DNA of 13,641 bases, taken from positions 974,565-988,205 of the forward strand of contig NZ_BDUC01000003.1 of assembly GCF_002218085.1 (NCBI RefSeq). The letters are read 5' to 3'. Position numbers and translations under genes: made by a program. Under the pieces are notes generated by a model that saw nothing but the letters and a program-made list of their open reading frames with translations, was not told where the DNA came from and made no database searches. Shown here piece after piece: positions 1,089-11,774 of this stretch (positions within the stretch are counted from its first letter, which is position 1; each line of letters starts with the position of its first letter). The stretch comes from Tolypothrix sp. NIES-4075 (GTDB taxonomy: Bacteria; Cyanobacteriota; Cyanobacteriia; Cyanobacteriales; Nostocaceae).

Positions 1089-1319
1089 TTAAGCACTTTT
1101 GAACGGATAAACCCGCTCTTGAGTCAACCACGCCGCGTAAAGTAGAGATTGACGAATATCCTCTGGTTCTAAATCAGGATATTCTTCTAAAATCTCCGCT
1201 ACAGGTTTGTCATTAGCTACCAAATTTACGACTAAAGAAACCGGAATTCGCATCCCACGAATGCAAGCTTGTCCACCCATTACGCTAGGGTTAAATGTAA
1301 CTCTGTCTAGACCTAACAT
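1089..1319 (-). CDS. DUF433-domain protein, the candidate antitoxin/partner of DUF5615.
   Basis: The 76-aa ORF carries the DUF433 hallmark: NPSVMGGQACIRGMRIPVSLVVNLVA...ILEEYPDLEPEDIRQSLLYAA. It forms an operon-like arrangement with 717..1079. Confidence 0.85.
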   Translation of the reverse strand: MLGLDRVTFNPSVMGGQACIRGMRIPVSLVVNLVANDKPVAEILEEYPDLEPEDIRQSLLYAAWLTQERVYPFKSA

Positions 1320-1405
1320 AAAATTTAAAATTATCTCTCTAAAATATTGTTTATCTTTGCTTACAAGGATGTGGATTTAGCGGACATGGTATTACACAGT
1401 CGATC

Positions 1406-1444
1406 TTCCACCTAAACTTATTAAACCACGCAAAGCGATCGCGA
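1406..1444. repeat. Partial copy of a HIP1-centred dispersed repeat (family copy 1 of 3).
   Basis: ttccacctaaacttattaaaccacgcaaagcgatcgcg aligns with ttccacctaaaaggattaaagcacgctcatgcgatcgcatg at 4411 and with the copy at 5055. Confidence 0.6.
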
Positions 1445-1598
1445 CTATTCATCCAGTCCTAAATCATCTATACATCTTAATTCGTAGTGCGGACTGAAGT
1501 CCGCTCCTTCCTTACCATATTTTAATGAACCACCGGAGAAGACAAGCTTACACTTGAAGATATATATAACTGTAATCTTGTAATTAATAGCTTGCTGC

Positions 1599-2030
1599 AT
1601 GGAACCTGTAACAATCACAACTGTAGCAACAGCGATCGCCACAATAGTTTTCACTAAAGCCCTAGAAAAAACAGGCGAAAAGCTTGGAGAAGCTGCATTA
1701 AACCAAAGTCATAAGTTAATCGAACAGCTACGCCATAAGAATAAGTTACCATTACTAGCGAATGCCACACCAGAAAACCAAGAACGATTAGATTATGGCA
1801 AAGCAGTACTGGAGTTGAAAGCAGCAGCAGACGCAGATAGCGAAATTGCTGAATCAGTCCGGTCTGTAGAAGCAGCAGCAAACGCCGATGCACAAGTTGC
1901 GCCAAAAGTCAAAGAGTTAGCAAATGATATCAACTCGCAACCAGCAGGTGTAATCAATTCTACAAAGTTAGCTGAATCGATTAAAAACGTCTTTCAGGGA
2001 AATACTTTTAACGGTACTAATATCTTTTGA
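1599..2030 (+). CDS. 143-aa hypothetical protein. It has an N-terminal hydrophobic helix, an Ala/Asp/Glu-rich helical region and an N/G/Q-rich C-terminal tail. It may be the detached or read-through N-terminal effector module of the downstream NLR-like gene.
   Basis: ATG-initiated ORF. The N-terminus is MEPVTITTVATAIATIVFTKALEKTGEKLGE and the tail is IKNVFQGNTFNGTNIF*. It is in the same reading frame as 2091..4178, and only the TGA at 2028-2030 lies between them. Confidence 0.6.
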   Translation: MEPVTITTVATAIATIVFTKALEKTGEKLGEAALNQSHKLIEQLRHKNKLPLLANATPENQERLDYGKAVLELKAAADADSEIAESVRSVEAAANADAQVAPKVKELANDINSQPAGVINSTKLAESIKNVFQGNTFNGTNIF

Positions 2031-2090
2031 CTCTGTACGTCCGAACGGGAACGGACAAAGTTAAATCCCCCTATTATAATACCGCATAAT

Positions 2091-4178
2091 TTGCCCTGGA
2101 GTGGGGTGACGGAGTTTGTCGGGCGTGAAAAAGAACTCGAACATCTCCACCAACTCTTGCAGGGAAATGACTCTGTGGCGATCGCGGCTGTTGCTGGTAT
2201 GGGTGGCGTGGGTAAAACAGAATTGGCGTTGCAATATGCACTTAGTAAGCGCGAATTTTACTCAGGTGGGATTTGCTGGTGTCAAGTTAAAAGCGGCAAT
2301 GTCGGTTTGCAGGTGGTGCAATTTGCTCGCATTCACCTAGAATTAAACCCCTTGACAGATTTGGATTTAGTCGGGCAGGTAAAATATTGCTGGCAGCGCT
2401 GGCGTGAGGGTAAAGTGTTGCTAGTGCTGGATGACGTCACTATATATAAGGAAATTGTGCCGTATTTACCGCCGTCATCCTCCCGATTTAAGGTGCTGAT
2501 GACAACCAGAAAGCACTTCGGGCAGATTTCTAAATTACCATTAGATGTGCTGCAACCACAAGCCGCGCTGGAGTTGTTGCGAAATCTCATCGGCGCAAAA
2601 CGGGTTAATGTAGAGACGCGAAATTTCGCGTCTCTACCTGAAAGGTTGGGATATTTGCCTTTAGGGATAGAGTTAGTTGGACGGTATTTAGCAAGAAAAG
2701 AGGATTTGTCCCTCACAGAAATGTTGAAAAGGTTGGAGAAAAAGAAACTCTTTGAGCGTTCTTTATCTCAGCCAGAAGAAAACATGACAGCACAGCAGGG
2801 TGTGCAAGCAGCATTCGAGTTAAGTTGGCAAGAATTAAACGATACAGATAAGCAATTAGCGTGTTTGCTGAGTTTATTTGCTGCTGCACCGATACCTTGG
2901 GAGTTAGTGAAACAGTGCTTAAGTAGTGCGGATGCAGAAGAGTTAGAAGAAAGTCGGGATGATAAGCTGGTGAATTTGCATTTGCTACAGCGTAAGTCCA
3001 AGGGAGTTTATCAACTGCATCGACTGCTGCGAGAATTTTTTCAAGCGAAGTTAGAAGCACCACCTTTGCAGGAAAGTAGCAGGAATTTTAAACAAGCTTT
3101 TACCACAGTAATGATAGCAGTAGCCAAATATATTCCTCAAACCCCCACCCTTAAGTTTATCACCGCTGTCTCCCCCGCTATGCCTCATTTAGCAGAAGTA
3201 GCGAAGAATTTTATTCAACATATTAGCGATGAGGATTTAATCTGGGCTTTCGTCGGGCAGGGTCGATTTTACAATGGTCAGGGATTGTATGCTCAAGCAG
3301 AACCTTGGTTTAAGCTGTGTCTAGAAGTTACTAAAAAGCGTTTGGGAGACAACCATCCTTATGTAGCGCAAAGCTTAAACAACCTAGCAGGACTTTACAA
3401 ATCCCAAGGACGTTACCCAGATGCCGAACCATTGTACCAACAAGCTTTGCAACTAATGCGACACCTGCGGGGAGAAGAACATCCCTATCTTGCACCTACC
3501 CTCAACAGCTTGGCGGAACTCTACCGTTCTCAAGGACGTTACGCAGATGCCGAACCATTGTACCAACAAGCTTTGCAACTTCGGCGACATCTGTTGGGAG
3601 AAGAACATCCCGCTGTCGCAGTTAGCCTTAACAACTTGGCGTTACTTTACTATTATCAAGGACGCTATACTGAAGCCGAACCTCTAGCACTCCGAGCAAT
3701 AGAACTAGATAAGCAGTTTTTAGGGGAAAAGCACCCCGATTTAGCTACAGATATTCACAATTTGGCTTTGATATACCGCGCTCAAGGACGCTATAGCGAA
3801 GCAGAACCATTGTTTCTGGAAGCTTTGAAACTCAAACAGCTTCTACTGCCAGAAGATCATCCTCTTTTAGCAGATACTATCTACGCTCTCGGTTATATGT
3901 ACAGAATTCAGGGTTGCTACACTAAAGCAGAAGCATTTTCCATAAAAGCATTGGAACTCGATAAACGTTTGCTGGGAGACAATCATCCCCATGTCGCGCA
4001 AAGCTTAAACAACTTGGCAGAACTCTACAAATCTCAAGGAAGTTACAGCCAAGCCGAACCTTTATTGCAAGAAGCTTTAGATATTTTTCAGCGTCAGTTA
4101 GGTGTGAATCATCCCCACACTATCACTGTTCGTGAAAATCTGGCAACTCTTCGTGCTGAGATAACTTCAAAGCAGTAA
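2091..4178 (+). CDS. NB-ARC (STAND P-loop NTPase) plus seven 42-aa TPR units: a bacterial NLR-like protein. The start is uncertain. TTG 2091 is the track's start and GTG 2106 is the alternative. The frame is open upstream to the TGA at 2028.
   Basis: Walker A is [11 protein letters not shown] (nt ~2196-2228) and Walker B is VLLVLDDV. An NB-ARC-like region with LPLGIELVG follows. From about nt 3243 there are seven kinesin-light-chain-type TPR units (NLAxLYxSQGRYxxAEPLxxxALxxxxxxLGxxHPxVAxSLN). Confidence 0.9.
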   Translation: MPWSGVTEFVGREKELEHLHQLLQGNDSVAIAAVAGMGGVGKTELALQYALSKREFYSGGICWCQVKSGNVGLQVVQFARIHLELNPLTDLDLVGQVKYCWQRWREGKVLLVLDDVTIYKEIVPYLPPSSSRFKVLMTTRKHFGQISKLPLDVLQPQAALELLRNLIGAKRVNVETRNFASLPERLGYLPLGIELVGRYLARKEDLSLTEMLKRLEKKKLFERSLSQPEENMTAQQGVQAAFELSWQELNDTDKQLACLLSLFAAAPIPWELVKQCLSSADAEELEESRDDKLVNLHLLQRKSKGVYQLHRLLREFFQAKLEAPPLQESSRNFKQAFTTVMIAVAKYIPQTPTLKFITAVSPAMPHLAEVAKNFIQHISDEDLIWAFVGQGRFYNGQGLYAQAEPWFKLCLEVTKKRLGDNHPYVAQSLNNLAGLYKSQGRYPDAEPLYQQALQLMRHLRGEEHPYLAPTLNSLAELYRSQGRYADAEPLYQQALQLRRHLLGEEHPAVAVSLNNLALLYYYQGRYTEAEPLALRAIELDKQFLGEKHPDLATDIHNLALIYRAQGRYSEAEPLFLEALKLKQLLLPEDHPLLADTIYALGYMYRIQGCYTKAEAFSIKALELDKRLLGDNHPHVAQSLNNLAELYKSQGSYSQAEPLLQEALDIFQRQLGVNHPHTITVRENLATLRAEITSKQ

Positions 4179-4235
4179 AATTCAACTTCTCAGCCTCAAC
4201 GATGAAGTTCTCAACTCGGATTTTGCAGTGTTGAA

Positions 4236-4340
4236 GCTCAACTTTCAGCTTCAGAAGCTCAACTTTCAGCTTCAGAAGCTCAACTTTCAGCTTCAGAAGC
4301 TCAACTTTCAGCTTCAGAAGCTCAACTTTCAGCTTCTGAA
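4236..4340. repeat. Tandem array B. The 21-bp unit is gctcaactttcagcttcagaa, in five copies, with degenerate flanks over about 4179..4404.
   Basis: Units start at 4236, 4257, 4278, 4299 and 4320. The array starts 58 nt after the TAA of the NB-ARC/TPR gene. Its flanks are homologous to those of array A (aactcggattttgcaNtgttgaa upstream, aggttgaatgatRRtgtta downstream). Confidence 0.95.
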
Positions 4341-4410
4341 CTCGGATGATGAACCTCAAAGCTTGAATTATCAACTTCTGAGGTTGAATGATAATGTTAC
4401 ATAGTCACTT

Positions 4411-4470
4411 TTCCACCTAAAAGGATTAAAGCACGCTCATGCGATCGCATGAGTCTGCTGTGCGGCGCAT
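4411..4470. repeat. HIP1-centred dispersed repeat (family copy 2 of 3). This is the uninterrupted reference copy.
   Basis: The sequence is ttccacctaaaaggattaaagcacgctcatgcgatcgcatgagtctgctgtgcggcgcattacatt. It contains the 18-bp perfect palindrome ctcatgcgatcgcatgag. Confidence 0.7.
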
Positions 4471-4803
4471 TACATTCGTATATTTTTTTCATAAAATCTC
4501 GCGTACCACCAGGCACGATCGTACTTAAAAAAAGACTTAAGCGAAGGGCGATCGCTCATTAAGTAAACTTTTTGGTTTACTAACTTTGATTGCTGTGATG
4601 AACATTTACAGCAGCAATTCGTAGCAGGTGTGAATATTCCCTTGCTCAAAAAAAATGCTGATTTTTTTAACTATCACGCTTGTGACCTGTTCAACCGCAC
4701 CAAACTGCTATTAGTCAAAGTTTAAGACTGAACAAATTTTGAGAAAGCACCCGGTATTAGCTGACTAAGGAGTGATGAATTAAATATCCGAGTAGCTAAA
4801 CCA

Positions 4804-4965
4804 ATGAAAATTTTAGCAGTTTTGTTGATTAGCGCGATCGCCCTTCCGATGCCAGCGCTAGCAGATGCCTACAAATCACCCAGCTATGACTTACCTAATG
4901 CAATGAGTGATTGTACTTATCGCGGGGGTGGTCGCCGTGAAGATTGCTTCTCCCTCCTGCGCTAG
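4804..4965 (+). CDS. Small (53 aa) predicted secreted peptide with two Cys. It is not in the ORF track because it is shorter than 60 aa.
   Basis: My translation is MKILAVLLISAIALPMPALADAYKSPSYDLPNAMSDCTYRGGGRREDCFSLLR*. It has a textbook Sec signal peptide: an MK n-region, a hydrophobic core and ALA just before D. No convincing Shine-Dalgarno lies close to the ATG. Confidence 0.45.
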   Translation: MKILAVLLISAIALPMPALADAYKSPSYDLPNAMSDCTYRGGGRREDCFSLLR

Positions 4966-5054
4966 GTAAAACCCCAAAAAACCGGGAATGCCTTTGAAGC
5001 TAACCCGGTCGATTGCTTTTTGCTTTGAAAATGCATTACGCCGTCAAACCTAAC

Positions 5055-5264: not shown

Positions 5265-5556
5265 GTCTGCCCGCGTTGCTTTCACCCAACATTCTTGAGG
5301 GCAATAAAACGCAACATCAACGATATCAATGTGCTGCGTCATGTTCTTTGAGCAAAACTACTGAAAAGAGTTTTCATTGCGTATAAACACTAAATACTGT
5401 CAGTATGAAAACGCTTTTTTCTTAAGCGAAAAAGCTTCATAAATTCACTTTAACTTTACCCGATTAAAGTGGATAAAAATTAAATTAGCTAATGAAATGG
5501 CTGAATCTGTTGCAAATAAACAGATTCGCATAACATCAAAAATTAGCGAGACAACT

Positions 5557-6633
5557 ATGACAGTAACTATCAAAAAATTATTGGTTGGTGCAACCGTAGC
5601 AGCAAGCATGAGCGCGATCGCTTCAACTCCAGCTTTCGCTACCAACCTTACCAAACCGACTAATATTCAATTCACCACCAACGGTGTCAAGAACACAGAT
5701 GCCAATAAAGCTAATATCAATACCTGGACTTACGGTTCTGTGGAATCCGATAAGACTGGTATCGGTGGTGTGAACCGACAAGTTTTAAACGATTATAAAA
5801 ACTACGGCAATACCAATAAAGCGATCGCAGCTTTAACAGACAACGATAGTACTACTAACGTTGAACTGTTTAACAATGGTGAAAATGTCTCAGATCATGT
5901 TGGCTTCACTGCTAATTTAGGAAAAAACACCATTAAGGTTGAAAGTGTCACTAAGGCTGACTGGGCTGATGGTACATTAGCGAAACAGTGGTTGACAGGC
6001 TTTAGCAATACTTACAGCGGATTAATGGCAAGCACTGCTACAACTCCTGGTTCTAACCTGCTCAAAGATTTTAATAATAATTTTGATTCTATAGTCAGCT
6101 ACCTCAGCACTAACGGTTTTAAGAGGGCTGACGATCCTAATATTGGGGATATTTCGTACGATAAACAGACTGGTAATTTGAAAGTTGACCTAGTTGGACA
6201 CTTGGATCTGGCTGGAAAATATGTAGATACCAGAAAACAAATTAAAGTGGGTAACACATTAGTAAATAACCCGGCTTATGGCAAAGGTTTATCGCCTGAG
6301 TATGACAGTTACAAGACGGGAAATGTAATCTTTGATGCAATGCTGTTTAGGTTATCTCAAACAGCAGTAGCCACAAATACAATGTTACAAATGAGTGAAA
6401 TTGCTAAAGTAACTTTCAATGGTCAAGTTGACTACGCATTTACCTTCGCAGCAAAAGATTCCGGTGCTATAGCAGGCGATCGCAACAAGCTCACTGATAC
6501 CACATCTCACACCGGCATTTACTCTTGGAATAAGACTCGCAAGAGAGTACCCGAACCTTCAGCCATTTTCGGTTTAGTAGCTGTCGGTGGTTTAGTAGTT
6601 GCTTCACGACGCAAGCGTATGCAAAATGCGTAG
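5557..6633 (+). CDS. PEP-CTERM-anchored secreted protein with an uncharacterised passenger domain. The alternative upstream ATG at 5497 is judged less likely.
   Basis: From ATG 5557 the product is MTVTIKKLLVGATVAASMSAIASTPAFA|TN..., a classic signal peptide. The C-terminus VPEPSAIFGLVAVGGLVVASRRKR is the PEP motif, a TM helix and an Arg-rich tail, i.e. the PEP-CTERM/exosortase sorting signal. Confidence 0.85.
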   Translation: MTVTIKKLLVGATVAASMSAIASTPAFATNLTKPTNIQFTTNGVKNTDANKANINTWTYGSVESDKTGIGGVNRQVLNDYKNYGNTNKAIAALTDNDSTTNVELFNNGENVSDHVGFTANLGKNTIKVESVTKADWADGTLAKQWLTGFSNTYSGLMASTATTPGSNLLKDFNNNFDSIVSYLSTNGFKRADDPNIGDISYDKQTGNLKVDLVGHLDLAGKYVDTRKQIKVGNTLVNNPAYGKGLSPEYDSYKTGNVIFDAMLFRLSQTAVATNTMLQMSEIAKVTFNGQVDYAFTFAAKDSGAIAGDRNKLTDTTSHTGIYSWNKTRKRVPEPSAIFGLVAVGGLVVASRRKRMQNA

Positions 6634-6909: not shown

Positions 6910-9357
6910 TTAGCCAACACTTGTTAATAACAACTCGCGTTTTTCTGTCTTACGTACTACCACCTGACCGTCGTCGTCAACGTCAACAATGGCTGAGTCT
7001 CCATCAACGACTTGACCGGATAGCATTGCTTCGGCGAGAGAATCTTCCAAAAGGCGCATAATCGCTCTACGTAACGGTCTAGCACCGTAGCTGGGGTCAT
7101 AACCTTCTTGTACCACACGCTCTTTGAAGCGTTCTGTGACTTCTAAGGTAATTCCCTTTTCAGTTAAGCGACCAGCAACTTCTTTGAGCATGATTTGGGC
7201 GATTTGCTTGACTTCTTCTTTGTTCAACTGAGTGAAGACGATAATCTCATCCAGACGGTTGAGGAACTCAGGACGGAAGTAAGCTTTTAATTCTTCGTTC
7301 ACCAAAGTTTTGATGCGGGTGTAATTTGCATCGGCTGCATTTTCGCTGAAATCGAAGCCCAAACCACCACCACCTTTTTCAATCACCTTAGAACCGATGT
7401 TAGAAGTCAAGATGATCAAAGTGTTCTTAAAGTCCACTTTTCGACCTTTCGCATCACTGAGATGACCGTCATCTAAGATTTGCAGCAGCATATTGAATAC
7501 ATCGGGGTGCGCTTTTTCGATTTCGTCGAATAGCAGCACTGTGTATGGTCTGCGGCGCACGGCTTCGGTTAGTTGTCCGCCTTCGTCGTATCCGACGTAA
7601 CCAGGAGGCGAACCAATTAACTTAGAAACGGTGTGACGTTCCATGTATTCCGACATATCCAAGCGAATCATTGCTTCTTCAGAACCGAAGAAGTAACTCG
7701 CTAAGGATTTTGCTAACTCGGTTTTACCGACTCCGGTAGGACCAGAGAAAATAAAGCTAGCGATCGGACGGTTGGGATTTTTTAAGCCAACTCTAGCGCG
7801 ACGAATGGCGCGAGATACTGAGGTAACTGCTTGTTCTTGACCGATAAGCCGTTGGTGGAGAGTATCTTCTAAGTGTAGAAGCAACTCTGACTCAGATTCG
7901 GTCAGCTTGTTGACGGGTACACCAGTCCAGGAAGCCACGATTTGGGCGATGTCTTCCTCATCAACGATTCCGTGGAAAGTTGCCTCGTTTTGTGATTCTA
8001 ATTGCAGTTGCGCTTCAATTTCTAACTCTTGGTCGCGCAGTTGTCCTGCTTTGTCAAAATCTTGAACTCTAACGGATTCATCTTTAGCTTTGGAAACGCT
8101 GATGAGTTGGCGCTTGAGTTCTTTGTTGGTAGAAGACATCGAGTTCCGCAGACGAACGCGAGAACCGGCTTCATCAATCAAGTCTATTGCTTTGTCTGGT
8201 AAGAAGCGATCGCTAATATAGCGGTCTGACAACTCAGCCGCAGCTTTTAGCGCTGCATCTGAAATTGTGACTCTGTGGTGCTGCTCGTAAACGCTCCGCA
8301 AGCCCTGTAGAATCTCGATGGTTTCCTGTACAGTGGGTTCCCCGACCATAATCGGTTGGAAACGACGCTCTAGAGCTGCATCGCGCTCGATGTGCTTGCG
8401 ATACTCATCAAGGGTAGTTGCTCCCAAGCATTGAAGTTCACCTCGCGCTAATGCTGGCTTGAGAATATTAGAAGCATCCAAGCCGCCTTCTGTGCCACCT
8501 GCACCAACAAGCGTGTGAATTTCATCTATCACGAGGATGATATTACCCGCCGTGCGGATTTCCTCCATGATTTTCTTCAGGCGTTCTTCAAAATCGCCAC
8601 GGAAGCGAGTACCTGACACCACCGAACCCATGTCTAGGCTGATAACTTGCTTGTCTTGCAAAATATCCGGCACATCTTGATTTATAATGCGTTGTGCTAG
8701 ACCTTCGGCGATCGCTGTTTTGCCTACTCCTGGTTCGCCAACCAACACTGGGTTATTCTTCGTGCGGCGACCGAGAATTTGCACGGCACGCTCAATTTCT
8801 TTTTCTCGACCAACTACAGGGTCAATCTTGCCTTCTTTGGCTAGTTTGGTGAGATTTCTGCCAAACTCTTCTATACTCAGGTTTTGGGTGCGTTTTTGAC
8901 CACCACCTGCGGTAACGCTTGCATCATCACCCAAGCGGCGAATGACTGCACTGCGGACACTTTGTAGCTCAACTCCCAGATTTTGCAGTACTTTGGCGGC
9001 AACGCCCTCACCAGCTTCAGTCAATCCCAAAAGTAGATGTTCTGTGTTTATGTAGTTGTGTCCCAGACTGCGAGCTTCTTTAAATGATTGCTCAAACAGG
9101 CTTTTTACTTTGGGTGTAAAGGGAATTTCTGGTGGTACAAAGCCTGTACCGCGACCAATGATTTTTTCTACTTCTCGACGTGCGTCTTTGAGGGTAACAC
9201 CCAACTCAGTCAGCACTTTTGCAGCCACCCCAGTTCCTTCTCCCATCAAGCCCAGGAGAATCTGTTCTGTGCCTACAAAGTTGTGTCCCAGGCGCCGAGC
9301 TTCCTCCTGAGCTAACATAATTACTCTAATGGCTTCGGAAGTGAAGTGTTCAAACAT
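6910..9357 (-). CDS. clpC: ATP-dependent Clp protease ATP-binding subunit ClpC (class I Clp/Hsp100, two AAA+ modules).
   Basis: The 815-aa product starts [37 protein letters not shown], followed by a second Clp_N repeat ([14 protein letters not shown]). Walker A motifs are GEPGVGKT and GPTGVGKT. There is a short UVR-like middle motif ([23 protein letters not shown]) and a GLGF ClpP-docking loop. The length and short M-domain fit ClpC rather than ClpB. Confidence 0.93.
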
Positions 9358-9927: not shown

Positions 9928-10489
9928 CTAAGCTGATGAAGCCTTCTGACCTGCGACTAAATTTAATCGAGCAATTTTATTGCGTTCTGCTTGCTTGGTG
10001 ACAAGCTCAATAATGATTTGTCCGTTGTTTCCTAAAGCTGCAAGCAGACGCGATCGCCATTGCTGCACTTGCTCATCTGACTCACCGAGTAGTTGCTGTA
10101 CTAATTTTTGCAGAGCATTTGCGATCGCGCTATAGGGAATATTGCGCTGGAATTGATCAAATTTCCCCCAGATAAAATAGCCGCGCTTTTGGGTAATTGG
10201 TTTATATATTTCCTGCACTAACGCAGACTTCCCAATGCCAGCATAGCCAGATACCAACATCATTTCGACTTGGAATTTTGGGTTGCCCCCTTGTTCGGTT
10301 TGTGAAGTCGTTTCTCAATTGTTTGGTAAAGCAGCGACGCGATTTGACTCTGGACACGCTACGCGAACAAACGCCGCCAGTAACATTGTAACTTCCTTGT
10401 CCCGTCCATAAAGTTTTTGGGGAATTTGAAACTGATTACAAACGTCTTGAAGTGCCAGCTCAATACTAAAGATTTGACCGATTTCTTCT
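9928..10489 (-). pseudogene. Remnant, distal part, of a multidomain Ser/Thr-kinase/AAA-ATPase sensor protein. It covers the kinase-AAA linker and the Walker A region, has an in-frame TGA and is truncated at the 3' end.
   Basis: The two track ORFs (10315..10503 and 9928..10263) share a frame and are separated only by a TGA (plus-strand tca, 10315-10317). Motifs are FQIPQKLYGRDKEV..LLAAF and MLVSGYAGIGKSALVQEIYKPITQKRGYFIWGKFDQFQRNIPYSAI, typical of cyanobacterial kinase-AAA-GAF-histidine-kinase proteins. Everything after ...GNNGQIIIEL degenerates, and the ORF ends 18 nt from the neighbouring gene. Confidence 0.8.
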
Positions 10490-11462
10490 ATAGCAACCGC
10501 CAAGGCGGTTTGAGTATAAACTGGAAGAGTCCGTTTCCTTTTCCTGCAAAGCGCGATCGCGCTAACATATGCCCAAACCTTACAGTTACGACCTTCGTCA
10601 AAAGGTCATCCAAGCCATTGAACTTGATGGCTTGAAGAAAAGCGAGGTCAGTCAACTGTTCAATATTAGTCGCAATACCATAGACTTATGGCTGAAGCGA
10701 AAAAGCGAAACAGGCGACTTCCAAGCCTTAGCGAACAAGCCTCCTGGGAATGGTCATAAAATTACCGACTGGGAAAAATTCCGAGAGTTCGCTTTATCTC
10801 ATGGGGATAAAACCCAAGTCGAGATGGCCTCACTTTGGGAGGGACAAATCAGCGATCGCACCATTTCACGAGCGTTAAAAAAAATTGGCTTCACTCGAAA
10901 AAAAAGACCTACGGCTACCGTGAGCGCGATGAAGACAAACGGCAAGCGTTTGTAGCGCAGTTATCCACCCTATCTGTAAAGAAAATTGTTTACCTTGATG
11001 AGTCTGGTATGGATAACCGAGAGGACTATGAGTATGGTTGGAATGAAAAAGGGCAGCGCTTCCATGCAATGCGCGTCAGGCCGTCGTCAGGGTCGGGTAA
11101 ACATGATTGCCGCACTATGTGACCAAAACTTGATCGCTCCCTTCACTATTGAGGGTGCATGTAATCGAACAGTATTTGAAACATGGTTGGAAACCTGTTT
11201 GCTTCCTATACTCGAACCAGGACAGGTTGTAGTCATGGATAATGCAACGTTCCATAAAGGTGGGTGCATTCAACAACTGATCCAGGATGCGGGATGTGAA
11301 GTGCTATACTTACCACCTTATTCTCCAGACCTTAACAAGATTGAAAAATGCTGGTCTTGGTTAAAAAGTCGAATCCGCAAAAAGCTGGATCAGTTCGATT
11401 GTTTACGAGATGCCATTGAGCATGTCTTGCGTTTGACGTCTTAACCGCCTTGGCGATTGCTA
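10490..11462 (+). mobile_element. IS630-family (Tc1/mariner-like) insertion sequence, 973 bp, with 20-bp terminal inverted repeats and a TA target-site duplication.
   Basis: The left end is tagcaaccgccaaggcggtt (10490-10509). The right end is aaccgccttggcgattgcta (11443-11462), whose reverse complement tagcaatcgccaaggcggtt matches 19/20. It is flanked by TA at 10488-10489 and 11463-11464. Removing the IS and one TA restores the host reading frame (...ADQLEEIGQIF...). Confidence 0.9.
10569..11444 (+). CDS. IS630-family DDE transposase. Three frame segments (0, then -1, then back to 0) are needed to make the full protein, so this copy is probably defective.
   Basis: The HTH N-terminus is MPKPYSYDLRQKVIQAIE...SRNTIDLWLKRK. 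The catalytic residues sit in YLDESG, VVMDNATFHK and PYSPDLNKIEKCWSWLK. The frame changes at the A8 run 10898-10905 and again near the gcgcg at 11070-11075. Confidence 0.85.
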
Positions 11463-11774
11463 TAATTGATCAGCACAGATTTCTAAATCCGCTTTGATTC
11501 CCCAGGCACTCTGATAGCGATCTTCTGCATTTTTTGCCATCAGTTTGAGAATGATATCTGAAACTGGCTTGGGAATCGTTGTATTTATTTCATGAGGCAG
11601 AGGTGGCTGCTTGGCAATATGACAATGGACTAGCTCAAGGATGTCCGTTGTTGGAAACGGCAGATGTCCGGTTAGCAGTTTGTAGAACGTCACACCAAGA
11701 AAGTAAAAATCGGTGCGGTAATCGAGTAAACGGTTCATCCGTCCGGTTTGCTCTGGAGATAGATATGCAGGCGC
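11463..11774 (-). pseudogene. Remnant, proximal part, of the same Ser/Thr-kinase gene. Only the kinase C-lobe is present. The N-lobe and catalytic loop are missing, and weak similarity may extend to about 11837.
   Basis: The minus-strand translation is ...APAYLSPEQTGRMNRLLDYRTDFYFLGVTFYKLLTGHLPFPTTDILELVHCHIAKQPPLP...AEDRYQSAWGIKADLEICADQL. This carries the kinase subdomain VIII-XI signature of cyanobacterial sensor kinases. An in-frame TGA lies at 11775-11777, and there is no recognisable kinase sequence further upstream. Confidence 0.8.

Follow-up and report, generated by a model that had tools for sequence, protein, structure and literature searches.

A conserved in-frame UGA and RNA hairpin suggest programmed readthrough between a Bell-like module and an NB-ARC protein in Tolypothrix sp. 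NIES-4075

The stretch of DNA analyzed here, referred to throughout as the window, comprises 13,641 nucleotides (nt) of the cyanobacterium Tolypothrix sp. NIES-4075 (contig NZ_BDUC01000003.1, positions 974,565 to 988,205 of the forward strand). On its plus strand, an open reading frame (ORF) running from ATG 1599 to TGA 2028-2030 encodes a small protein of 143 amino acids (aa), and the frame stays open straight through this TGA into a second ORF, at 2031-4178, for an NB-ARC/TPR protein. The latter is a nucleoside triphosphatase (NTPase) of the STAND class (signal transduction ATPases with numerous domains) and is referred to below as the NOD-like receptor (NLR) part. The initial annotation, which was made from the sequence alone, described the 143-aa module and missed the junction between the two ORFs, where an in-frame UGA is followed by an RNA hairpin; this junction is the main feature of the locus. 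The features are as follows, with the evidence for each in brackets.

1599-2027, plus strand: coding sequence of the 143-aa Bell-like module, which is the short product if translation ends at the UGA (ORF, homologues, AlphaFold2 model)
1605-1655, plus strand: N-terminal uncharged hydrophobic helix, residues 3-19, PVTITTVATAIATIVFT, with the ME of the MEP motif just before it (hydropathy, AlphaFold2 model, family consensus)
1965-2027, plus strand: N/Q/G-rich tail, residues 123-143, KLAESIKNVFQGNTFNGTNIF (family alignment, position of the BASS5 motif in relatives, predicted local distance difference test (pLDDT) below 50 at residues 135-143; BASS stands for bacterial amyloid signalling sequence)
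2028-2033, plus strand: candidate leaky recoded stop, an in-frame UGA followed by CUC, in the family UGA-CUR (TGA in 81 of 81 junctions, sequence context, a relative with TGG)
2039-2056, plus strand: hairpin S1, GUCCG (2039-2043) with CGGAC (2052-2056) around the 8-nt loop AACGGGAA, 8 nt past the UGA (covariation, RNAalifold, covariance model)
2047-2069, plus strand: possible pseudoknot stem S2, loop GGGA (2047-2050) with UCCC (2066-2069) across the A-rich linker AAAGUUAAA (pairing compared with shuffles)
2031-4178, plus strand: NB-ARC and TPR STAND NTPase ORF of 715 codons and a stop, sharing its frame with the 143-aa ORF (translation, Pfam)

The 143-aa ORF is a genuine gene and not a chance ORF. 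Its product matches GAX42350.1/WP_089128131.1 exactly, a 'hypothetical protein' of Tolypothrix sp. NIES-4075, and homologues numbered 219 in a search with the single sequence, 1360 with a profile and 184 representatives in an exhaustive search at the 50% clustering level. The homologues are nearly always 130 to 155 aa long and come from Nostocales. Along the protein, MEPVTITTVATAIATIVFT is followed by KALEKTGEKLGEAALNQSHKLIEQL, then by an Ala/Asp/Glu-rich stretch, and finally by IKNVFQGNTFNGTNIF at the end. The physical description given in the initial annotation was borne out. Residues 3-19, described there as an uncharged hydrophobic helix, have a net charge of 0 and a mean Kyte-Doolittle hydropathy of 1.68, and form a putative membrane-inserting or pore-lining helix. 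The helices after them are amphipathic (hydrophobic moment 0.44 to 0.60), the Ala/Asp/Glu-rich stretch is present in the translation as described, and the end that had been called N/G/Q-rich is there too, with the last 17 residues rich in N, G, F and T. Structure prediction of residues 1-143 alone, a check that the initial annotation had proposed, gave an all-helical AlphaFold2 model of moderate confidence (71 homologues aligned, mean pLDDT 69.6). It has seven helices across residues 6-133, the first of them at 6-25, and a disordered tail at 135-143 (pLDDT below 50).

The junction in the window was compared with those of 79 related loci in different genomes; protein homology was used to find these loci, whose modules are 53 to 92% identical. 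The set gave 81 junctions, of which 79 distinct sequences were used for the context counts. All the evidence for readthrough given below is from comparative sequence analysis. The stop codon at the junction is TGA in 81 of 81 cases, with C at +4 in 75 and T at +5 in 77 of the 79 distinct junctions, and the next codon is mostly CTR. As background, TGA makes up 34% of the stops of long ORFs in the same loci, and TGA followed by C only 9 of 80. UGA, a C at +4 and UGA-CUA are known leaky contexts (PMC7026636), and the junction has the conserved leaky stop and 3' context that are looked for in programmed readthrough.

What follows the stop is also conserved. The downstream cassette (the codon after the UGA, an 8-nt spacer and the RNA structure described below) is present in 78 of the 81 junctions. 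In 68 of these 78 loci the frame is open for at least 300 codons (median 756), and in 2 more it is open to the contig end. NB-ARC matches obtained with tblastn lie in frame 0 at every cassette junction whose open frame reaches the NB-ARC, and the linker to the same NB-ARC residue is 52, 55, 58 or 61 nt long, differing only by multiples of 3. A metagenomic member that is only 31% identical has the same UGA-CUG, the hairpin and an in-frame NACHT. Frameshifting by +1 or -1 and hopping were rejected as explanations: no shift is needed to join the two ORFs, the codon before the UGA is variable (TTT, TTC, AAC, ACT and others), and wobble variation is seen right after the UGA. An alternative genetic code was likewise rejected, TGA being the ordinary stop for 34% of the long ORFs in the same loci.

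Hairpin S1 consists of 5 base pairs (bp), with a loop of 8 nt in the window and 11 nt in the loci with a NACHT partner (the NACHT class). Across 74 distinct junctions, 98.4% of the cells in its alignment are paired, and covariation is seen in three of the five pairs: C-G to U-A in 17 sequences, C-G to U-A or G-C in 27, and G-C to C-G or U-G in 8 (7 + 1). None of 500 column shuffles reached the observed score, a statistic that overstates independence because the sequences are phylogenetically related, and partner columns slid out of register were 6 to 39% paired. RNAalifold predicted the helix unaided. On both arms, the compensating changes alter the encoded residue (Pro..Val to Ser..Thr, for example), which argues for a constraint at the level of RNA and not of protein. 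A covariance model of the junction found 80 matches in 869 kb searched on both strands, all on the plus strand and all at module/NTPase junctions, including two sites not previously picked up; the window scored 68.2 bits. No Rfam family was found at the junction or anywhere in the window. S1 is a conserved structure of the kind expected to stimulate programmed readthrough from downstream of the stop.

A second stem, S2, would make the element an H-type pseudoknot, in which the loop GGGA(G) can pair with (C)UCCC nine nt past the hairpin. The four core pairs of S2 are 91% paired, compared with 87% after shuffling (0 of 2000 shuffles reaching the observed value) and 30 to 65% when slid, and in 80 metagenome cassettes the corresponding values are 92% and 88% (0 of 2000). 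Two pairs show double changes from G-C to A-U; 12 A.C mismatches fall on one pair. In a single-sequence fold, UUUGACU (2025-2031), which holds the UGA, pairs with AGUUAAA (2059-2065) and encloses the hairpin. The 3' partner in this pairing, AAAGUYAAAU, is almost invariant in all cassettes, and its U/C variation, a Leu/Ser change, keeps a G.U or G-C pair with the G of the UGA. It may represent an alternative helix masking the stop, an A-rich pseudoknot loop or a protein constraint. A Shine-Dalgarno role for the purine-rich loop was rejected, there being no start codon within reach.

Pfam identified NB-ARC (3.2e-15) and TPR_12 (1.9e-97) in the product of 2031-4178, and a fusion from readthrough of 1599-4178 would measure 859 aa. 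Among the related loci the downstream partners are diverse: NB-ARC with TPR, NACHT with HEAT (some with NCC-H), and one NB-ARC with DUF7779 and a phycobilisome-protein domain. The peptide right after the UGA, L-[QHY]-S-P-x-x-E-x-x-V/T-K-x-x-P, is common to the NB-ARC and NACHT classes. For the NACHT class, the ratio of non-synonymous to synonymous changes (pN/pS) was calculated in two groups over codons 17-71 and 17-100 after the UGA, which start past the RNA structure and end before any start codon. It was 0.11 and 0.22 in the frame of the UGA and at least 1 in the other frames. This class has no conserved ATG, GTG or TTG; the first is at codon 72 in one group and at scattered positions in others, one locus (L078) has none within 100 codons after the UGA, and the P-loop is reached at about codon 107-115. 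The downstream ORF is in the same frame, has a coding substitution pattern and lacks a start of its own, as programmed readthrough would require, with the caveat of a GTG at codons 26/27 in the NB-ARC class that is weighed below.

Two further observations concern the sensor part. One cassette-linked NB-ARC protein (L047, 6436-8421) has a C-terminal phycobilisome-protein (globin-like) domain (PF00502, 1.9e-36) replacing the TPR or HEAT repeats, an unusual putative sensor domain. In the TPR region of the window, 3405-3682, tandem repeats of 126 bp (42 codons) have a mutual identity of 82%; high internal repeat conservation has been reported for NLR repeat domains (Dyrka et al. 2020, bioRxiv 10.1101/2020.01.06.895854).

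Two relatives have no stop at the junction. In a GC-rich relative (L172) the junction reads AAC TGG CTG GAG TCG CCC, placing Trp exactly at the UGA position, and in another (L173, P0257) the module and a NACHT are fused directly without the UGA codon. These relatives indicate that the continuous polypeptide is viable and favor Trp as the inserted residue. The contig with the direct fusion also carries an orphan copy of the module (L173, 196-690), whose stop is TAA and which is followed by a decayed cassette, with no NTPase.

The cassette is not confined to the 143-aa family. A scan of metagenomes with a degenerate DNA pattern of the cassette, which itself fixes the TGA and part of the hairpin in the set selected, yielded 90 sites on 89 contigs. 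The majority (73 of 90) are behind the 143-aa family, while 17 are behind other N-terminal modules, all in frame. These include alpha/beta-hydrolases of about 300 aa, with weak matches to DUF676, PGAP1 and Abhydrolase_6, a TIR domain (Pfam TIR_2, 3.9e-16) and further small modules with a MEP helix. An N/Q/G-rich segment lies just before the UGA in each of these non-family modules, with BASS9-like (MTQNNYDNARGWQTKVEGGTAYI) tails in the hydrolase (NFGDTRNFQTQIEGGTAYI) and the TIR protein (NSTGWQVNVSGGTVNL). More cassette sites were noticed at L007 (1987-2421) and L004 (198-263), behind a divergent 125-aa MEP-helix module (MEPATLTAAAIATLVIVKAFEKTGE...GNTFNF, then TGA CAG); one genome region can thus carry two systems in tandem, and CUR after the UGA is not absolute.

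Two-gene pairs of Bell proteins and NLRs coupled by BASS motifs are known from filamentous bacteria, with BASS5 rows given in Table S2 of Dyrka et al. 2020 (bioRxiv 10.1101/2020.01.06.895854), and the protein of the window is in a family that overlaps this known kind. Three members of the family (L056, L060 and L064), 64 to 66% identical to the window protein, are without the cassette and have the tail KLAEKIGQVVVGGTGSIQNQSF. Their NACHT gene starts 25 nt later in another frame (MPEDTGKFAEKIGVVAHNSTVNIHNQNIG...TPINWHEICRQLL), and the NACHT protein starts with MPEDTGKFAEKIGVVAHNSTVNIHNQ, the tail and the NACHT N-terminus sharing 12 of 20 residues. The pair agrees with the BASS5 rows KLADKIGQVVMPGGTGNIENQ / MPEDSGKFADKIGVFAAPGAQVNIGTQI of that table, and on these matches the three loci fit the operational definition of a BASS pair. 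The tail of the window protein aligns with KLAEKIGQVVVGGTGSIQNQSF by position, an alignment made without a BASS profile score.

In the window, the sequence after the UGA, LCTSERERTKLNPPIIIPHNLPWSGVTEFVGRE, contains no copy of the tail motif on the NLR, so that two-gene BASS pairing does not apply there. The initial annotation had pointed to coupling of this type, and in its place we find an in-frame UGA and an RNA hairpin joining the ORFs. With BASS5-pair relatives and cassette members in one family, there appear to be two alternative solutions: the NLR either has its own copy of the motif, as in the two-gene pairs, or would gain the motif together with the whole module by readthrough of the UGA. 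The tail may have amyloid or templating behavior.

Family context suggests that the 143-aa protein is a Bell-type, putatively membrane-attacking module. The AlphaFold2 model has the compact all-alpha form expected of such a domain (about 80 to 120 residues). The N-terminus reads MEPVT... (start MEPVTITTVATAIATIVFT), the family consensus is MEPVTLTAVATAIAT with variants MEPLS and MEPLT, and both the window protein and the family have the 'MEPIS'-type N-terminal motif as judged by eye, without a published profile. The uncharged N-terminal MEP helix is the best-conserved part of the family. The 'MEPIS' motif is common to the N-termini of Bab, Bell, Hell, Avast2 and bNACHT proteins and is required for the activity of Bab and Avast2 (Ibarlosa et al. 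2024, bioRxiv 10.1101/2024.11.07.622273). An NB-ARC or NACHT ORF comes next in 78 of the 81 junctions, which is the recurrent STAND NTPase association on which the initial annotation had made its Bell/HeLo-like assignment depend. That assignment is sustained in part, by the all-helical fold, the MEP helix, the NLR association and the BASS5-type relatives; the part that did not hold, a significant profile or fold match, is among the points against weighed below. Cluster look-ups aimed at linking the family to published Bell accessions gave RCJ37669.1 and GAX42350.1, neither of which is in the tables of Dyrka et al., and the link was dropped; RCJ37669.1 differs from the published RCJ33357.1.

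From the ORFs, the conservation of the UGA and of the frame, the covariation of the hairpin, the coding signature after the UGA and the reuse of the cassette behind other effectors, we consider it probable, though by no means certain, that region 1599-4178 is one recoded immune gene and not two independent genes, and that programmed readthrough of the UGA yields two products, the effector in its short form and a longer fusion of effector and NLR. The occurrence of readthrough, how efficient it is and which residue is inserted are what we infer from these comparisons, and a membrane activity and a role in phage defense would follow as predictions for the products.

Several observations weigh against this interpretation. 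The S2 pseudoknot is plausible and its evidence suggestive, though modest. The downstream frame is truncated in 8 of the 78 cassette loci, through decay or assembly errors. In the short linker of the NB-ARC class the coding signal is weaker, with pN/pS of 0.40 in frame and 0.68 to 0.77 in the other frames. In the same class, the window included, the Val codons 26/27 of '..SGVVKFVGRE' (2106-2108 in the window) are GTG in 47 of 51 and 40 of 43 cases (92-93%), compared with a background of 33%, so that an NLR without effector could start there independently; this may reflect an internal GUG start of that kind or another RNA-level constraint. For the module, scans with Pfam, NCBIfam and PADLOC found no HeLo, Helo_like_N, SesA or other family at E <= 1, barring a spurious winged helix-turn-helix match at 0.031, and the profile check with HeLo-like models that the initial annotation had proposed therefore gave no significant match. 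A profile search (hmmsearch) of PDB sequences with the family returned nothing significant (best E 0.31), nor did Foldseek with the AlphaFold2 model against the PDB (best E = 2.3), and neither profiles nor folds connect the module with HeLo, Bell, Bab, MLKL or HET-S. When the BASS5-type relative L060 was used as the query of a homology search, none of the published BASS5 Bell proteins was among the best 120 matches. To our knowledge, structure-stimulated readthrough is not established for cellular bacterial genes.

Of the alternatives, two survive better than the rest, and we regard both as unlikely. One is that the locus consists of two ordinary adjacent genes, the NLR starting at one of the first canonical start codons after the UGA in the window (TTG 2091 or GTG 2106) or by termination-reinitiation, with the hairpin serving coupling, mRNA stability or processing. 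Gene callers do annotate the module and the NLR separately, GTG is strongly enriched at codons 26/27 of the NB-ARC class, and both this family and the set described by Dyrka et al. 2020 include classical two-gene Bell/NLR pairs. Independent initiation, however, does not need a shared frame, and yet the frame is kept in 78 of 81 junctions, across NB-ARC and NACHT partners and across linker indels. The stop, moreover, is always UGA and nearly always followed by C, and the codon after it is CUA or CUG, which is unusable as a start. The NACHT class lacks a conserved start for 70 to 100 codons, in a stretch that is under purifying selection in the frame of the UGA. A promoter-like match between the UGA and the NB-ARC (2052-2080, sigma-70-like CGGACA-17-TATAAT, 10/12) was rejected as an internal promoter for the NLR because it is not conserved: its TATAAT is formed by the codons ATT ATA ATA, which are specific to the window and absent from relatives, and the match is probably due to chance. 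An independent start or reinitiation is possible as an additional route in the NB-ARC class.

The other of the two, which we hold equally doubtful, accepts readthrough as real but takes the module to be a helical adaptor or regulator and not a pore-forming protein, the short form acting as a decoy or inhibitor of the long form or as an oligomerization handle. This would agree with the sequence and fold comparisons, in which neither HeLo, Bab, MLKL nor any other pore-forming family was significantly matched, and with the only moderate confidence of the AlphaFold2 model. It would also agree with the use of the same cassette by enzymatic effectors (TIR, hydrolase), which makes the logic of short and long forms independent of pore formation. 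It is countered by the best conservation falling on the uncharged MEP helix, which fits the motif needed for Bab and Avast2 activity, and by family members that pair with NLRs via BASS5-type motifs as published Bell proteins do.

Insertion of selenocysteine (Sec) at the UGA, with the hairpin as a bacterial selenocysteine insertion sequence (SECIS), is very improbable. A conserved hairpin directly past an in-frame UGA is the layout of bacterial SECIS elements (PMC7026636), but there is no Rfam match at the junction, the position is in an inter-domain linker and not at a redox site, and single genomes hold many paralogues with the cassette, which also follows effector domains unrelated to each other. 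The Sec trait was not detected in Cyanobacteria by published surveys (PMC1794560), to which no scan of the cassette genomes themselves was added. Judged from these surveys, from the sense-codon relative, which has Trp (TGG) and not Cys, and from the relative without the codon, neither Cys at the UGA position in homologues nor Sec machinery seems to accompany the cassette. Least likely of all, and already contradicted by the conservation data, is that the NLR part is a decaying pseudogene severed from its N-terminal domain by a nonsense mutation: the 8 of 78 cassette loci with truncated downstream frames and the orphan copy at L173 with its TAA and decayed cassette would be in keeping with it, but the same stop is at the same position in 79 related genome loci and about 80 metagenome contigs, pN/pS downstream is 0.11 to 0.22, indicating purifying selection, and the adjacent RNA structure covaries.

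Under programmed readthrough, a single mRNA would carry the module and the NLR parts, and ribosomes would begin at ATG 1599; no terminator-like site was found on the plus strand within 1100-4500. The majority would stop at UGA 2028 and free the 15-kDa module, predicted to be a helical bundle sheathing the hydrophobic MEP helix and followed by the disordered BASS5-like tail. Some ribosomes would decode the UGA, most likely as Trp via near-cognate tRNA-Trp, favored by the weak UGA-C(U) context, by the hairpin 8 nt downstream at the mRNA entry site and by the possible pseudoknot. These would make the 859-aa fusion of module, tail, NB-ARC and TPR, with the junction peptide NVFQGNTFNGTNIF-X-LCTSER, where X is predicted to be Trp. 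The long form would be rare and act as the sensor. Upon recognition of a trigger and oligomerization of the NB-ARC, its N-terminal tails and Bell domains would cluster, by analogy with Bab/Agp and HET-S/NWD2, and the clustered tails could then template or recruit the abundant short form. The freed N-terminal helices would attack the membrane and cause abortive infection or cell death.

This arrangement resembles several known systems, and differs from each of them. With the Bell/BASS-NLR pairs (Dyrka et al. 2020) and the abortive infection system Bab/Agp of Escherichia coli (Ibarlosa et al. 2024) it shares a small helical module whose N-terminal helix is hydrophobic and of the MEP type, a C-terminal tail that is short and rich in N/Q/G, an NB-ARC or NACHT partner directly downstream and an occurrence in Nostocales, L056, L060 and L064 being such pairs. 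Unlike in these pairs, the cassette NLRs (78 of 81 junctions) have neither a copy of the motif nor a conserved start of their own and lie in frame after the UGA and hairpin; the receptor would carry the whole effector and its tail, and both partners would come from one ORF. Unlike Bab and other solved relatives, the module has no significant profile or fold match. The fungal HET-S/NWD2 and HELLP systems (HeLo or Hell domain plus amyloid motif) likewise combine a membrane-targeting helical domain, an N-terminal hydrophobic helix, an amyloid motif and a nucleating NLR, whereas the system described here is bacterial, is not matched by Pfam models of the HeLo family and would be coupled by a recoded stop and not by two genes. 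Avast2/Avs2 and bNACHT02/11/23, which have a fused MEPIS-type domain, are comparable to the predicted long isoform in their order of MEP-helix domain, STAND NTPase and repeats. They are plain fusions, while here a stop codon is kept between the domains, from which an excess of free effector module would be expected.

The closest parallels for the junction itself come from viral and eukaryotic readthrough. The gammaretrovirus gag-pol stop is followed by an 8-nt spacer and a pseudoknot, and the RNA structure of the cassette likewise lies 8 nt downstream. The candidate leaky UGA of the cassette has C at +4 and is followed by a CUR codon, a context comparable to the UGA-CUA(G) stops of alphaviruses and humans and to the UGA of the phage Qbeta A1 protein (PMC7026636), and short and C-terminally extended products sharing their N-terminus are predicted. 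In contrast to these cases, the candidate signal is in chromosomal bacterial genes, is reused between immune effectors and STAND NTPases and is absent from Rfam.

A broader interpretation, which we think could equally well prove right or wrong, is that filamentous cyanobacteria have a portable recoding cassette (UGA-CUR, 8-nt spacer, hairpin/pseudoknot) placed between effectors with amyloid-type ends (Bell-like, TIR, alpha/beta-hydrolase) and NB-ARC or NACHT sensors. Structure-stimulated readthrough would then set a fixed ratio of free effector to fusion and allow amyloid or templated NLR signaling from one gene, as the first such signal in cellular bacterial genes that does not involve Sec or pyrrolysine. 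Dyrka et al. 2020 do not mention in-frame stop codons or readthrough (0 occurrences). Our search for literature on readthrough or recoding of NLR genes in cyanobacteria or in bacteria at large turned up no relevant work, within a coverage that was incomplete and leaves an earlier description elsewhere possible.

Other features of the window were noted in passing. Arrays of 21-bp tandem repeats with the related units TCAGAGGCTCAACATTCACCT and GAAGCTCAACTTTCAGCTTCA flank the gene, at 170-371 (about 1.2 kb upstream of the module) and 4233-4340 (directly past the NLR stop), and in L007, a close relative, the NLR is followed at 4551-4982 by a similar repeat that reads LQRLNVH.... Upstream of the module there is a DUF5615 (Mut7-C/PIN-like, 2.8e-24) and DUF433 (1.3e-22) gene pair on the minus strand (717-1319), with a toxin-antitoxin-like layout, and just upstream of the module a UPF0150/HicB-like ORF on the plus strand (489-683). 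On the minus strand at 9928-11738, a protein-kinase/AAA_16 gene is left as fragments 11460-11738 and 9928-10263 and appears to have been split by an IS630-type element with its transposase in ORFs 10569-10955 (HTH_Tnp_IS630) and 10986-11444 (DDE_3). Two further ORFs, at 5497-6633 and 6910-9357 (minus strand), encode a 378-aa protein without a Pfam match, whose C-terminus resembles by eye a PEP-CTERM sorting signal (VPEPSAIFGLVAVGGLVVASRRKR), and an 815-aa product that resembles a ClpC-type AAA+ chaperone, also by eye from its sequence. No tRNA gene was detected in a scan of the window.

Its family context allows the 143-aa protein to be grouped with the Bell/BASS systems. If the readthrough interpretation is true, the junction would represent a bacterial recoding signal of a new class, in which the RNA element is compact and covaries. 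It would explain hundreds of cyanobacterial NLR genes that seemingly have no N-terminal domain and no start codon; for many of these, the current annotation as truncated genes or as small hypothetical genes of their own would probably be wrong. A single gene would fix how much sensor is made relative to effector, with implications for amyloid or templated signal amplification in bacterial immune systems and for how fungal and animal NLR/effector pairs evolved.

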